IMG/VR virus record: IMGVR_UViG_3300031566_000001
Coordinates: 79,143 to 143,142 of that record
DNA: 64,000 nucleotides
Strand: one strand, 5' to 3'
Source of the DNA: a virus
Numbering within the stretch: the first letter of the stretch is position 1; each line of letters starts with the position of its first letter. This document shows, in pieces, positions 15,590 to 57,075 of the stretch. A model generated the notes under the pieces. That model did not search any database and was not told the DNA's origin. It was given only the letters and a program-made list of their open reading frames with translations. Made by a program: the position numbers and the translations under genes.

Positions 15590-17104
15590 ATGAGTAACGG
15601 CAATGCAACACCAGCACAAAAGGGATTCAGCCGTGTGTTCCTCATCGAGGGGAGGGCACGGGGTGACCATGTGCCTGTATACATGGGGTGTATGAGTGCC
15701 GGGGGGATAGACTGGTCCTTGGGTACCGTCTCCAAGATCGATTGTCCCAGCGACCGGCAGTACGATGCGTTTGTGGAGCGGGGGAAGAGCAAGTCGGAAT
15801 CAGACCGGCCCTCAAGCTCACTGGTGGGTCGGTATGCGGCGGACCTGGAGAGCACGATGATTCGGCTGGCCAGGACCGGCTGTGCATTTGACCTGCACTA
15901 TCATTTTGGGGTGTGCACAGACCCGCAGCTGTTCAACGTCTTCCAGAAGGCCGTTGTATGGGAAGATGTTGACATGACCAAATACTCCACGGACCCCCTC
16001 GGTGCCTTGGAGGAGGGAGACCGCGGAGCGATAAATGAGACCGGGGAGCTATCCGCCAGGGAGTTCTACGAGGTGCTCCCCATGGCCTTCGCAGAGGTGG
16101 CGGCGGCCATTGTCACCAATGAGATCATGGACGTGGTGGTCTGTGATAGCGTATCATGCGGGGAGTGCGCGGACCAGTCAGGCGGCTGCGAGAGGGTGTA
16201 CTCAGTCAGCCTGGCAGCAGGCGGATCACCGGGTACACCTGCTGATGTAGTGTACACGCTGAACGGCGCGGCAGGGCCTTGGGCCACCAGCGAGATCGAC
16301 TCACTCGGTGCAACGGAGGACCCGACGGGGCTGGCATGCCTGGCCGGGTACGTGGTGGTGGTATCAGCAGACTCGTGCTCCCTGCACTACGTACTACAGG
16401 CTGATCTGGACACGGTGGGTGACGAGACCTGGGTGGAGAACCTTGTGGGGTTCGTGGACAAGGGAACGGGAACCTGCCCCTTGGACATCTGGAGCGTGGG
16501 CAACTACGCCTTCATCTCCGCTGAGGGCGGGTATGTGTACGGCACTGCTGACCCGACAGCGGGTGTGACTATCTTGGAAGCGGGCAACGCGGTGACCAAC
16601 GCCTTGTGGGCCATCCACGCCATGAACCGGAACGTCTGTGTGGCTGTGGGCAGCGCAGGCGCAGTGATCCGGACAGGGAACGGTGGGGACACCTGGCAGC
16701 ACATGAGCGCGCCTGTGGGCCTTGGCACGTCCCTACAATCGGTGTGGGTCAAGACCGAGACAGAGTGGTGGGTCGGTTCCAGTGACGGGCGGCTGTTTGA
16801 GACCTTGGACGGAGGCGATACGTGGAACCTGCGGCAGAACTGGGCCGGGGGTGCCGTCAGTGATATCGCGTTCTCCTCGGACAATGTGATGACCGTTTCG
16901 CACACCACGGCTGCCGGGGTGGGGCGGCTACTGCGCAGCTACAACGGCGGTAACAGCTTCGTGGTGCTACCGGAGAGCGCAGGGGCCTTGCCAGCCAGCA
17001 GTCGGCTGAACGCCATTGCCCTGTGTGAGGATGATGTCAACCAGGTGGTCGCGGTCGGGTTGGACGGCGCCACAGACGGCATCATAATCTGGGGCGAGGA
17101 CTAG
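15590..17104 (+). CDS. Major tail protein with C-terminal beta-propeller (BNR/YCF48-like repeats)
   Basis: TGNGGDTW, TLDGGDTW and SYNGGNSF Asp-box repeats; precedes chaperone and TMP. Confidence 0.7.
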   Translation: MSNGNATPAQKGFSRVFLIEGRARGDHVPVYMGCMSAGGIDWSLGTVSKIDCPSDRQYDAFVERGKSKSESDRPSSSLVGRYAADLESTMIRLARTGCAFDLHYHFGVCTDPQLFNVFQKAVVWEDVDMTKYSTDPLGALEEGDRGAINETGELSAREFYEVLPMAFAEVAAAIVTNEIMDVVVCDSVSCGECADQSGGCERVYSVSLAAGGSPGTPADVVYTLNGAAGPWATSEIDSLGATEDPTGLACLAGYVVVVSADSCSLHYVLQADLDTVGDETWVENLVGFVDKGTGTCPLDIWSVGNYAFISAEGGYVYGTADPTAGVTILEAGNAVTNALWAIHAMNRNVCVAVGSAGAVIRTGNGGDTWQHMSAPVGLGTSLQSVWVKTETEWWVGSSDGRLFETLDGGDTWNLRQNWAGGAVSDIAFSSDNVMTVSHTTAAGVGRLLRSYNGGNSFVVLPESAGALPASSRLNAIALCEDDVNQVVAVGLDGATDGIIIWGED

Positions 17105-17111
17105 AAAATAC

Positions 17112-17236
17112 TGACCGATAAATCAGCGGTCACTGGGCGTGGAGGGCTAGACCAGTAGGTTCCCTATGAAGCGTCAAGGGGGCATTGATGTAAGACCCTT
17201 AGTCCTGAATTGACAGGACCTATATTTGGATTTGGG
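17112..17236 (+). ncRNA. Orphan omega-RNA (TnpB reRNA)-like scaffold, copy A
   Basis: Shares 21-nt and 13-nt identical blocks plus covarying stems with the tnpB 3' region (58190-58328); no tnpB adjacent. Confidence 0.75.
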
Positions 17237-17247
17237 AGGATCTTCCC

Positions 17248-17784
17248 ATGGCAACAAAAGTGAAGCATACCAAGAAGAAGGGCTTGCCGCCTGCTGCATT
17301 GGCGGCTATCGAGACCGCCAAGGAGATGCACAAGGCAGAGAAGCCCTTGGAGGTGACGCTGATACACGGGGTCACGGCCACGCTGCATGCTGTGGCCCCG
17401 TCCCTGATACAAGATGTGCAGCTGCGCATCGAGGACCCCAAGGTCCCAGTGGTCTACATCGAGGCCAAGGAGCGGGACGAGGAGAACCCGAACGACCCCT
17501 CATACCTAGCTGCAATGGATCGGGCGGCGCAAGAGCGTAACGCGGCGGTCATGGACGCCCTAATTATGATGGGCGTAGAGCTGCCCGAGGGGTTCGAGGT
17601 GCCGCCGAAGTGGGTGAAGCGTCTCAAGATACTGGGCTTCGACTTCGATGAGGATGATCCTGACGAGGTGGAGTTCGTCTTCAAGAAGTACCACACTAGC
17701 ACTAGCGTCATAGCGACGCTGTCTGTGATGTCGGGTATCCGGGAGGAGGACGTGGCCGCATTCCGCGAGCTTTTTCGCGGTTAA
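17248..17784 (+). CDS. Tail assembly chaperone
   Basis: Between tail tube and TMP; acidic. Confidence 0.7.
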   Translation: MATKVKHTKKKGLPPAALAAIETAKEMHKAEKPLEVTLIHGVTATLHAVAPSLIQDVQLRIEDPKVPVVYIEAKERDEENPNDPSYLAAMDRAAQERNAAVMDALIMMGVELPEGFEVPPKWVKRLKILGFDFDEDDPDEVEFVFKKYHTSTSVIATLSVMSGIREEDVAAFRELFRG

Positions 17785-18046: not shown

Positions 18047-20638
18047 GTGGCAATAGAGACCATCGGCGTCCGGGTAGTGGTTGAGGGCGCAAACAAGGCG
18101 GTCGATGACCTGAACAGGGTCAACAAGGCAGCGTCAAGCCTGGGCGGCGCGGCTGCGGCCACTGCTTCCCCTTTGGGTATCCTGGGCAGTGCGCTGGCCA
18201 ACGTAGGGCAGATCGCCGCGGGCATCATCAGCGCGCACCTGTTCACCAACCTGGTAGAAGGCCTGAAAAGTGTAGCGTATGAGGCCCTGTTTGGTGCAGG
18301 GCGCGTCGAGGAGCTTGAGGTCATCCTGGAACTCTTAGGCACGCGGGCTGGTTACAGCGCAAGCCAGCTCTACCAGTGGCGTGACGCGATGGTGGACGCG
18401 GGTATCCGCAGCGACGTAGCCACTAAGAGTATTGCAGAGTTCATTCGTTACCAGATGGACGCGACCAAGGCCGTAGAGCTGGCGGCTGTGGCCCAGGACG
18501 CGGCTACCTTTGCAGCTGAGGATAGCACCGAGGCCCTAGCAGGCCTGATGCACGGTATCCTCACCCAGAGGTCCATCGTCCTACGGACCTACGGCATCAT
18601 CGTGGACACAAACCAGGCAATGGAGGACTACAAGGACGTCATCGGCGCGGTTGGCAGGGAATTGACCGCCTCCGAGCGCGTGCAGGCTATGATGAATGCG
18701 GTATTAGCCCAAGGCGTTGCTATCAGCGGGGCCTACGAGGCGGCGATGGGCACCTGGACCAAGATGTGGAGGACGCTGACAGGAAGACTCATCCCGGAGA
18801 TGATCTGGCAGCTGGGTGGCCCGTTCCAGCAGGTCATGGGTTCTGCGGTTTTTGCTATCGCCGACTTCGTCAAGGTGCTGACCGCAGCGGTGTCGGAGGG
18901 TGGCAGGCTGAGGCCTATCTTAGATGCGTTAGTTGTGGTCGTCAACAGGCTCCTGGCCCCGGTCATAGCCCTGACCCGCGTGGTAGGCGATTGGCTAGGG
19001 ACCACGGCGGAGGGTGCCAAGAAGGTAACCAAGGCCATGGAGGAGATGGCGGGTAAGGTGACCGCAGTACAGGCCCCTAACCTGGCAGCCGCTTTTGAGA
19101 GCGGGGCTACGAAGATCATTGACGCCAACAGGGATCTCACTAAGTCCATCACCCGCATGTGGGACGATCACAACCGCAGGCTGGTGCAGACTACATTTGA
19201 TTTCAACCTGGGGCGGTTGAGGGATGAGCTGGACTGGCAGCGGCGTAGAGAGCGGGGCCTGGAGGAGCATAACCGCAAGATGGCGGACATGTACGCGGAG
19301 CTGGATGAGCTGCGCACGGGCAAGCAACGCCAAGAGATCAAGGCCCAGATGCAGGACGAACAGAAGGACTACGCAACCCAGCGGTCACAGTTCGAGCGGT
19401 TGCTGGCTCAGGCGCAATCCGATGAAGAGAAGCAGCGCATTCAGGGCTGGCTCGATGTACTAGCCATTGAACATCAGGGCAACCAGGAGGCGCTACAAGA
19501 AGAGGTAAGCGCCATAGATGCTGAGCAAGCAGCTCTGGAGAAGCGCATCGCCTTAGAGGAGAAAGCCTTTAAGGACCGGAGAGCCCTAGAGGCAGAGGAT
19601 CGGCGCATCCGGTTGGCCCGTGAGGATGAGGACTTTGCGCGGCGCACGGCCAGGGAAGAGGAAGAGGCGCGGCGCAGGGAGACCTTGCAACGTGAGGAAA
19701 CCACAGAGCGGATTGCTCTCATACGGGAGCAGATCGCCGAGGAGAACGCGGCCAAGCTGGCTGCGTACCAGGAGCAGGGGGCGATGCTCACGCAGTCTGT
19801 AGGGGAGCAAAAGGGCATCCTGGAGGAACTGGGCAAGGAGCAGAAGAGTTTGATAGATGAATGGAAGACGACTATAGAAGGCTGGTTTGAAACCATCAAG
19901 GATGTTGACTGGAAGGGATTGGCTGCAGACGTGAGTTCTATCGCTCAGAGCCTCGGTGATATAGCTGGGCCAGCGGCGATTATTACGGGTATTCTAACCA
20001 CGGGCTATATCAGGGGCCTGATAACCTCATTCGGTGGCTTTAATCAAGTCCTGAAGGGCACAGGCGATATCGTGCAAGGAATATTCGGCCTTGACATTCC
20101 ACGTATCTTGACTGGAACTAAGACGTTTGTCGAGGGCTGGATGATCACCTTTATTGGATTCTTCGGTGGGGCTTTGCAAAGCGTCTATAACCTACTAACA
20201 GGCAAGTCAGTCAGAATTGTAGATGATGTGGTGGATGAATTACGGCGTTTATCTAGTGAAAGCACAAGACTCGGTGGTGAGTTCATAGAAGGCCTCATCC
20301 TTGGCATAAATCGTTGGTGGCAGCAGCTCATAAACCGGGTGAGGGAACTGGCCGAGGCCATCATCTACGAGGTCAAGGTTAGACTACTTATGGGCTCACC
20401 ATCCAAGGTATTCATCGGTATAGGCCAGGAGATCTCACGGAGCTTGGCGGAAGGTATTCGGTCGATGGGGGACCTACCCGCGCTACAGATGGGTCAGGTC
20501 ACCTTGGGCACCCTGGCGGCTGTACCTGCGTCAACGACGACCGTTAGCAACAGCTACAACCTCAATATGACCAGTATGGCCCCGGTGTCTACGGTGGTCT
20601 CAGACTTCCGGCTGATAAAGGTGATCGCGGGGCGGTAG
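18047..20638 (+). CDS. Tape measure protein
   Basis: Ala/Gly-rich helical with long coiled coil; LRTYGI TMP motif; SPSKVF C-terminal motif. Confidence 0.9.
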   Translation: MAIETIGVRVVVEGANKAVDDLNRVNKAASSLGGAAAATASPLGILGSALANVGQIAAGIISAHLFTNLVEGLKSVAYEALFGAGRVEELEVILELLGTRAGYSASQLYQWRDAMVDAGIRSDVATKSIAEFIRYQMDATKAVELAAVAQDAATFAAEDSTEALAGLMHGILTQRSIVLRTYGIIVDTNQAMEDYKDVIGAVGRELTASERVQAMMNAVLAQGVAISGAYEAAMGTWTKMWRTLTGRLIPEMIWQLGGPFQQVMGSAVFAIADFVKVLTAAVSEGGRLRPILDALVVVVNRLLAPVIALTRVVGDWLGTTAEGAKKVTKAMEEMAGKVTAVQAPNLAAAFESGATKIIDANRDLTKSITRMWDDHNRRLVQTTFDFNLGRLRDELDWQRRRERGLEEHNRKMADMYAELDELRTGKQRQEIKAQMQDEQKDYATQRSQFERLLAQAQSDEEKQRIQGWLDVLAIEHQGNQEALQEEVSAIDAEQAALEKRIALEEKAFKDRRALEAEDRRIRLAREDEDFARRTAREEEEARRRETLQREETTERIALIREQIAEENAAKLAAYQEQGAMLTQSVGEQKGILEELGKEQKSLIDEWKTTIEGWFETIKDVDWKGLAADVSSIAQSLGDIAGPAAIITGILTTGYIRGLITSFGGFNQVLKGTGDIVQGIFGLDIPRILTGTKTFVEGWMITFIGFFGGALQSVYNLLTGKSVRIVDDVVDELRRLSSESTRLGGEFIEGLILGINRWWQQLINRVRELAEAIIYEVKVRLLMGSPSKVFIGIGQEISRSLAEGIRSMGDLPALQMGQVTLGTLAAVPASTTTVSNSYNLNMTSMAPVSTVVSDFRLIKVIAGR

Positions 20639-56497: not shown

Positions 56498-56913
56498 GGC
56501 GGATAGTAGTCTGGCCAGTCCCTGTAAATGAGCATGCCCACATATCGTGCTCGAAGTGCAGGGTTATTACGGGTTCCTTCATATTTGTGGACGTGCCCAT
56601 AATGTGCCTGTACCTCCCTTTCATGGGGCACCTCTGGGAAGTGGTGGGGTTGGAATGCAGGGGGTGGATCCGGGATAGCTCATCATGGGAAGCGTGGGGG
56701 GTTTTGGGACAACCGCTTTGTGGGGCTGAGGCGATGGGGAGTTATTACTACAAGAAGCCTCCCTATGATTTCATGTGGGCGTGGAGGCTCTTGAGCTGTA
56801 CTAAACCAGAGGACTGGCGGGACTTGAAGGGAACCTTGATGATGGCGGCCCTGAATGGGGGCTATGTACCGTCAGGGCATCTTTTGCCAGCAAAAGGTTC
56901 TAGCGGGTTATAA
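56494..56913 (+). CDS. Hypothetical protein
   Basis: ATGA-coupled. Confidence 0.45.
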   Translation: MRRIVVWPVPVNEHAHISCSKCRVITGSFIFVDVPIMCLYLPFMGHLWEVVGLECRGWIRDSSSWEAWGVLGQPLCGAEAMGSYYYKKPPYDFMWAWRLLSCTKPEDWRDLKGTLMMAALNGGYVPSGHLLPAKGSSGL

Positions 56914-56914
56914 T
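56882..56914 (+). promoter_or_regulatory. Palindrome site plus -10 box upstream of tnpB
   Basis: TTTTGC-CA-GCAAAA-N13-TATAAT. Confidence 0.7.
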
Positions 56915-56936
56915 AGGTGAGTGAAGTAAATGAGGC

Positions 56937-56965
56937 TTGACAAACCGGAAGGAATCTGCTATACT
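56937..56965 (+). promoter_or_regulatory. Sigma70 promoter for tnpB locus
   Basis: TTGACA-N17-TATACT. Confidence 0.85.
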
Positions 56966-56971
56966 GATAAT

Positions 56972-57063
56972 GCTACAGGTGCGGCGTGGTTGTTTTGTTA
57001 TAGAAGGGGTCATGCAGGCCACGCGCACCTGTAGCGGGACGTGAGGCATAAGCATGGCCCCTT
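56972..57063 (+). ncRNA. Structured leader RNA upstream of tnpB
   Basis: GCTACAGGTGCG/CGCACCTGTAGC 12-bp stem; loop AAGGGGTCATGC complementary to GCATGGCCCCTT (57052-57063). Confidence 0.55.
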
Positions 57064-57075
57064 TGACATAGGGCG

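Follow-up and report, generated by a model that had tools for sequence, protein, structure and literature searches.

A full-length tnpB-less omegaRNA scaffold in the late operon of a phage that also encodes an array-linked TnpB

Sequence comparison confirmed that a gap between two late structural genes of a phage holds a full-length, tnpB-less omegaRNA scaffold of the standalone type (Table 1; hereafter the orphan), within a 64,000-nucleotide stretch (the window) that spans bases 79143-143142 of an IMG/VR virus record 143 kb long. The orphan is identifiable as a scaffold by homology and by structure, is polymorphic for insertion among related phages and is conserved in two phage lineages. That it is a standalone omegaRNA gene used in trans by the intact TnpB of the same phage, as the initial annotation proposed, is a reading to which the sequence evidence gives about an even chance.

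Self-comparison of the record (G000) resolved it into two colinear phage genomes, arranged head to tail and 75-90% identical, referred to here as genome A (approximately 1-77.5 kb of the record) and genome B (the window), so that a comparison between siblings is built in. The joined record is probably an assembly or binning chimera, and because it consists of two joined phage genomes its CheckV label of '100% complete' is misleading. The orphan is housed in a gap of 143 bases between a 504-aa gene and a 178-aa gene. The 504-aa gene, located two genes ahead of the tape-measure gene (18047-20638), gave no PHROG match and only a sub-threshold Pfam match, family searches with the 178-aa gene gave no match, and neither flanking ORF matched TnpB or TnpA. 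A 143-nt gap upstream of an identical 178-aa protein was also present in five other assemblies, as judged from coordinates only; the identical phage is present in ENA assemblies ERZ27256827, ERZ27256828 and ERZ27256834 and in runs SRR8554512 and SRR8554643. A weak promoter-like site was noted at 17061-17088, upstream of the scaffold. The insert (17105-17155) extends the upstream frame by 16 codons beyond its TAG (KILTDKSAVTGRGGLDQ), probably by coincidence, and in-frame read-through of the tail gene TAG into these 16 codons was considered and dropped as without support.

Homology between the gap and the 3' end of the resident tnpB had been noticed as two exactly shared blocks, and both were recovered (17126-17146 = 58204-58224 and 17166-17178 = 58247-58259). 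The homology begins at 17112 = 58190, approximately 14 nt before the first of these blocks, and continues through the last hairpin (17219 = 58313); BLAST of the gap against the tnpB 3' end returned E = 2e-11, and the similarity is therefore not due to chance. Three scaffold copies are present in the record, comprising one behind each genome's tnpB and the orphan. Identity between the orphan and the resident scaffold is 69%. The orphan lineage shows approximately 70% identity to each of the tnpB-linked scaffolds sampled, and no parent element was found. The tnpB-type frame within the orphan ends after 16 codons, and no effector or transposase gene is attached.

A covariance model (R2) was built from 11 tnpB-linked scaffolds only, leaving out both the window orphan and a second orphan from a related locus (L092). 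R2 matched the window orphan at 96.1 bits (E of approximately 2e-24) over 17110-17221 and model positions 1-115 of 115, with 0 non-canonical pairs, matched the L092 orphan at 101.3 bits, again over the full length with 0 non-canonical pairs, and scored the resident tnpB-linked scaffold at 129.5 bits; it gave no match in loci with an empty site. This full-length match with all pairs canonical bears out the proposal that the gap carries a copy of the TnpB guide-RNA scaffold without a protein gene. The orphan lies in the sense orientation within the late operon and is followed, as had also been described, by a flank, the guide position, that is unlike that of the resident copy and overlaps the next gene's RBS; the overlap extends to the start codon. 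Among 33 columns invariant in the tnpB-linked set, 31 are kept by the window orphan; both departures lie in the pseudoknot loop (CG to TA) and are matched by a C-to-T change in the 3' strand relative to L092.

Table 1. Features of the orphan scaffold, its flanking genes and the resident tnpB locus (positions are those of the window)
Feature	Position	Strand	Basis or detail
Upstream structural gene, 504 aa, candidate major tail protein by position only	15590..17104	+	ORF
Left junction, 7 nt from stop codon to scaffold	17105..17111	+	
Standalone omegaRNA scaffold, P1-P5 and pseudoknot strand	17112..17234	+	Leave-out covariance model R2
P1 hairpin	17112..17132	+	17112-17117 with 17127-17132; loop holds 5' pseudoknot strand TAAATC (17119-17124)
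P2 around P3	17136..17175	+	P2 17136-17140/17171-17175; P3 17144-17146/17162-17164; core motifs CTGGRCGTGGAGGG and GAAGCGTCAAG
P4 hairpin	17178..17200	+	17178-17182 with 17196-17200
P5 hairpin	17202..17219	+	17202-17207 with 17214-17219; conserved loop GAATTGAC
3' pseudoknot strand GATTTG (most likely), immediately 5' of guide	17229..17234	+	Pairs with TAAATC 17119-17124
Predicted guide, flank that the scaffold would read	17235..17254	+	Inferred from omegaRNA architecture
Downstream gene, 178 aa, candidate tail assembly chaperone by position	17248..17784	+	ORF
Resident tnpB, 403 aa, candidate effector	57076..58287	+	Pfam HTH_OrfB_IS605, OrfB_IS605, Cas12f TNB
Resident tnpB-linked scaffold	58190..58315	+	R2; homology to orphan
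CRISPR-like mini-array after tnpB, 5 repeats of 29 nt	58347..58620	+	

The structure was examined in an alignment (A2) of the 3' regions of the 11 tnpB-linked copies, taken from tnpB relatives at 55-88% protein identity, together with the two orphans. Five helices (P1-P5) were paired in 97.8% of cells with double changes in 13 of 25 pairs, a value reached by 0/500 shuffles and compared with 36-52% in slid controls, and RNAalifold, unaided, gave the same helices. Single-sequence folding was uninformative, with a z-score of -0.37 for the orphan (stability no better than shuffles) and further z-scores of +0.84 and -0.67. Covariation was present in P1 across the family (UA/CG, GC/AU/GU and GU/GC/AU/CG) and was extensive in P4, where 4/5 pairs carry double changes and 100% of cells are paired (window G.U/G.U, L092 A-U/G-C, tnpB C-G/G-C). 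Relative to the resident tnpB copy, P5 shows three double compensatory changes, and P4 and P5 together show four double (compensatory) and two single changes with 0 broken pairs. The two hairpins quoted in the initial annotation as carrying compensatory changes, P4 and P5, thus exist with their pairing intact. Its further claim, that structure has been selected without coding constraint, does not follow from these changes: most of the listed differences lie between the orphan and the resident tnpB copy, and since these may predate the loss of the parent's function they are no proof of such selection. P5 and its U-rich tail gave one weak terminator-like match (6 pairs, 4 GC, tail CTATATTTGG), with 0.4 +/- 0.7 in shuffles.

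Rfam searches of the whole window at the gathering threshold returned no matching family, an exact 21-mer scan of IMG/VR found nothing, and the core-motif pattern gave 2 chance matches only in IMG/VR. In species genomes the same pattern gave 57 matches, mostly chance matches in coding sequence (for example in a topoisomerase-like gene), with real scaffolds in Nitrosopumilaceae (archaeal) and Nostocaceae (cyanobacterial) that carry both CTGGRCGTGGAGGG and GAAGCGTCAAG; the archaeal copies are mostly at the ends of long tnpB-like frames. Several species-genome scaffolds were considered as orphans, a reading that was dropped, as most of them end long TnpB-sized frames. In viral TnpB relatives at <=41% identity, scaffolds were not detected by model R1.

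The pseudoknot was assigned by comparing loops with candidate 3' strands. The P1 loop reads CGAATC in 9/11 tnpB-linked scaffolds and in L092, TAAATC in the window orphan and GGTTC in L101/L102, and the matching 3' strands are GATTCG in L092, GATTTG in the window and GAACC in L101/L102, the last of these lying 3 nt short of the end of the element, the point at which three insertion contexts separate. The initial annotation had paired the loops with pentamers shortly after the last hairpin, and although the motifs it named (TAAAT/ATTTG and CGAAT/ATTCG) are present, the partner was set approximately 5 nt too far 5'. Comparison with L092, with L101/L102 and with the ends of the CRISPR-like repeats indicates that the true 3' strand is most likely GATTTG rather than the ATTTG at 17224-17228. 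The latter was rejected as the partner because it also occurs after P5 in L101/L102, where it is unable to pair with the loop, and it is taken as a separate conserved motif. As only three distinct pairings are available, support for the pseudoknot is moderate. In the ISDra2 omegaRNA the pseudoknot forms between a segment close to the 5' end and the nucleotides 2-6 positions upstream of the guide (PMC10097598), and the position of the orphan pseudoknot matches this arrangement.

A related effector is encoded in the orphan's own genome by the resident tnpB, which carries all three Pfam domains listed in Table 1. Its product matched ISDra2 TnpB (8BF8) over the full length (E = 6.5e-72) and is much closer to it than to LaTranC (PDB 9JFQ; E = 2e-25, C-terminal part only). 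The RuvC motifs are intact, with IDVG, EDLN, DRDLNAA and the zinc-finger Cys pairs present in the alignment with the top PDB match, 9YYG. The unusual point is the neighbour of this TnpB, a CRISPR-like array with the same pseudoknot strand at the end of its repeats: in the window mini-array four intact repeats end GATTCG and the last repeat is degenerate. The same arrangement of tnpB and array was found at 7 further loci in six lineages (A, L098, L099, L100, L166, L167). Counting the window's own, 29-nt-repeat arrays after tnpB were observed at 8 loci in seven lineages and at least 4 gene neighbourhoods, with the array of L002 at 1659-1811. The stems of the repeats covary. GATTCG, which is complementary to the CGAATC P1 loop, closes each intact repeat and is followed immediately by the spacer; in the sister clade L101/L102 the array is absent and the pseudoknot strand is in cis. 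From its sequence, the tnpB and array together look like a split guide of the V-U/TranC type. Because the repeats carry the pseudoknot strand and the orphan keeps it in cis, the orphan is the unsplit form and the resident locus is apparently split.

Several observations were made on tnpB loci in their own right. The tnpB block (window 56880-58376 compared with G000:C1:62226-63722) is 95.5% identical between genomes A and B, its flanks are approximately 78% identical and the spacers are wholly different, which suggests that the nuclease module was recently exchanged or gene-converted between sibling phages. A conserved TTGACA-17-TATACT/TATAAT promoter is present at window 56937-57075 and in homologues in L002, L099, L101, L102 and L166, and between promoter and tnpB there is a long GCTAC...GTAGC hairpin, with a stem covarying between lineages, that is either a structured 5' leader or a left-end relic. 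Comparison of tnpB upstream regions recovered this shared promoter and hairpin and found no clear left boundary. At L168 (330-560), a 73%-identical tnpB lies just downstream of tRNA 3'-half-like sequences (GGTTCGATTCC and GGTTCGAATCC motifs); its P1 loop, CGAGTC, predicts repeats ending GACTCG, and the contig stops at the first repeat.

The insertion is polymorphic at the tail-gene site. In four related loci (three distinct sequences; genome A, L084/L089, L090 and L093) the homologous gap is 35-50 nt long, lacks the element and ends TGA(A/C)A GGGAGGACCTTCCCATG, so that the candidate target GGGAGGACCTTCCCATG is kept at empty sites, and in L092, a distant relative with a 70%-identical tail protein, an orphan is present at the same site and in the same orientation. 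A full tnpB of another lineage at this site, which the initial annotation had expected of related phages if the gap were a simple deletion scar, was found in none of them, four loci being empty and one carrying the orphan. The intergenic spacers of A, L090 and L093 at this gap are unalike, indicating quick turnover at the site. In L093 an unrelated GC-rich hairpin (GTTCGCGG..CCGCGAAC, at 1078-1095) occupies the empty-site gap, and a stem-loop after the upstream structural gene may be favoured in itself.

The junctions point to how the orphan arose. The 21-50 nt spacer found between stop codon and GGGAGG at empty sites is missing at the window junction, the 7 nt between stop codon and P1 contain no left-end or tnpB sequence, and L092 carries a different 7-nt filler at the same place. 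The orphan almost certainly derives from a full TnpB element by truncation on its 5' side. The missing left end together with the missing empty-site spacer fits either a deletion running from around the stop codon into tnpB or a homing repair in which only the right-end part was copied before end joining. Both orphans begin at the same nucleotide, which makes a single origin likely. Excision of a tnpB had been offered as the alternative to a second guide RNA; the absent left end agrees with its truncated origin, and on the question of origin it is not a rival.

Because the two orphans probably share one origin, differences between them amount to effectively one comparison. They are 87.3% identical, compared with 71% for the tail gene (75% in its last 150 nt) and 65% for the next gene. 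Pairing is kept at 4/4 stem differences, and the pseudoknot has changed on both strands (G-C to A-U and C-G to U.G). Differences on family-invariant columns number 3, against approximately 4.7 expected by chance. The high identity could reflect recent recombination between phages instead of selection. With invariant-column hits at the chance level and recent exchange of the kind described for the tnpB block, the evidence for selection is suggestive and not strong.

The guide predicted for the window orphan spans the RBS GGGAGG (17234-17239) and the start codon (17248-17250) of the downstream gene. Within the 143-kb record this guide has a single near match (1 mismatch in 16), at genome A's empty site, with TATGTGAAAG in front of it. 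At empty sites the candidate target is preceded by TGAAAG or TGACAG. The window guide is mismatched at position 7 to every known empty site, within the region of approximately 12 nt that TnpB needs. In L092 (1683-1738) the scaffold is followed by 21 nt, of which the first 15 (GGACCTTCCCATGGC) are a perfect copy of the siblings' RBS and start; these transplanted 21 nt open a dead 15-codon frame and are followed by a spacer homologous to the empty-site spacer (TCACATACTTTGTGAAAGG) and then by a recoded RBS region and new start codon. With a consensus-site copy after the scaffold and its own site recoded, L092 keeps a predicted guide against the consensus and differs at its own site. Searches for a TAM returned self matches only when array spacers were compared with sequences of the record and its relatives, and none was found with the array against INPHARED phages, with one spacer against IMG/VR or with DnaB neighbours in IMG/VR.

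In the reading of use in trans, the starting point would be a TnpB element placed ahead of the RBS of the gene that follows the tail gene, from which a deletion or an aborted homing repair removed the left end and almost the whole of tnpB, leaving exactly the guide-RNA scaffold. The scaffold would be transcribed within the late structural mRNA, and the phage TnpB would bind it and trim its 5' side as with its own mRNA, TnpB being known to make omegaRNA from longer mRNA by 5' processing (PMC10278001); approximately 16-20 nt from 17235, comprising RBS and start codon, would then be read as the guide. The phage's own copy would be protected because the scaffold, not a TAM, precedes the guide sequence. 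Empty-site siblings, which show spacer-TAM-GGGAGGACCTTCCC, would be cut in co-infection, and the outcome would be that siblings are excluded or that the orphan is copied into them via recombinational repair. P5 and its U-rich tail resemble a weak terminator, which would stop the transcript before the guide.

The orphan may instead be an inert scar, a non-functional 3' stub that was passively carried, was spread to the L092 lineage by recombination and is too young to have decayed. This appears somewhat unlikely, given that intergenic DNA at the site changes fast and yet the orphan is better conserved than the flanking coding genes, and that the stem changes (4/4) and the pseudoknot double change keep pairing, for which neutrality was put at approximately 0.01 (a rough estimate from one sequence pair). 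A scar would be expected to show what the junctions do show, namely a single copy with neither a left end nor a tnpB remnant, the upstream empty-site spacer missing as for a deletion from the stop codon into tnpB, and a possible microhomology (CTAAAGT) shared by the L092 junction and the tnpB bases immediately 5' of P1. Consistent with it are also the contrast in identity between the tnpB block and its flanks, since recent exchange does occur, the alteration of invariant columns between orphans at about the chance rate and the mismatch of the window guide to known targets.

A more elaborate form of use in trans, in which the orphan is a portable scaffold-plus-guide weapon or homing cassette that moves between siblings and one TnpB works in two modes, is unlikely. 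The L092 guide would then be a transplanted copy of the siblings' RBS and start, and the window guide the RBS in situ. The ancestral, unsplit mode would be represented by the orphan, with the window pseudoknot drifted to a private pairing, and the split mode by the array repeats supplying the pseudoknot strand.

Exaptation of the insert, in particular of P5 with its U-rich tail and of a sequestered RBS, as a cis-regulatory RNA independent of TnpB (an attenuator, terminator or translational brake), setting the ratio of the abundant upstream structural protein to the chaperone and tape-measure genes, is quite improbable, as it leaves unexplained the retention of five helices, single-stranded core motifs and a pseudoknot. 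The element adjoins an RBS, and the hairpin in the same gap of L093 indicates that structure there may be useful; against this, A and L090 have a short unstructured gap. P5 followed by CTATATTT matches a terminator-like scan, but a U-rich motif at this place is shared across the family and is also present in the tnpB-linked L101/L102. There is very little to recommend the remaining alternative, a spare tracr-like scaffold whose P1 loop pairs with the GATTCG end of mini-array crRNAs and whose own flank is not a guide: termination after P5 would yield such a guide-less scaffold, and the repeat ends are a perfect match to the CGAATC loop of the L092 orphan and of array-linked scaffolds, but the window loop TAAATC has one mismatch to GATTCG and matches its own cis strand GATTTG, and a scaffold of this kind is already encoded by the tnpB 3' end.

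The orphan is a leftover of a known kind, since standalone omegaRNAs acting in trans have already been described. Such RNAs reportedly function in trans with compatible effectors, with their biological role stated to be unknown (PMC10691335), and the cases of Altae-Tran et al. (2021), as summarised in PMC10691335, are 'evidently mobilized' copies in cellular genomes. Like them, the orphan is a scaffold with neither effector nor transposase next to it, and its genome encodes a related TnpB; unlike those described, it is single-copy, has no left end and is located in a phage late operon, the sequence predicted to serve as its guide comprises the RBS and start of an essential structural-module gene, and the resident TnpB is array-linked. 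The ISDra2 omegaRNA (8H1J, 8BF8/8EXA) consists of a scaffold of approximately 116 nt and a 16-nt guide, with several stems and a pseudoknot (PMC10097598). At approximately 123 nt the orphan scaffold has the same layout, and the resident protein is a full-length homologue; the likeness is one of layout, and the orphan RNA has no detectable similarity to Rfam families. Duplication of omegaRNA segments is a proposed route to an array in type V-U variants (PMC10691335). The resident TnpB locus is like TnpB-to-Cas12 intermediates in having a short array with repeats that resemble the last omegaRNA hairpin and pseudoknot strand, a likeness that belongs to the partner locus, the orphan being the unsplit single-guide form.

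Two other kinds of element invite comparison. PATEs are protein-less IS200/IS605 derivatives that keep both ends and are multicopy and mobile, and in which the right end and guide-RNA region can persist. The orphan lacks the left end and is present as one copy in 143 kb, and is therefore not a mini-transposon. T-even homing endonucleases cut, in a co-infecting relative, the allele without the element, which is then introduced by repair (marker exclusion). By analogy, specificity in the present case would come from an RNA located at the protected site, with the nuclease gene 41 kb away.

If the orphan is unused, it is an ordinary repair scar. If it is used, it would represent an RNA-guided homing system reduced to an RNA gene of approximately 125 nt at the site it protects, with a borrowed nuclease, and would be a compact means of competition or gene drive between co-infecting phages and a concrete role for standalone omegaRNAs. 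As the partner TnpB is array-linked, the pair of loci can be used to ask whether one TnpB accepts both an unsplit omegaRNA and a scaffold plus crRNA, and both guide forms in one TnpB are a proposed step from transposon guide to CRISPR. Were the portable-cassette reading true, the two loci would offer a side-by-side natural view of the origin of a CRISPR array from an omegaRNA.
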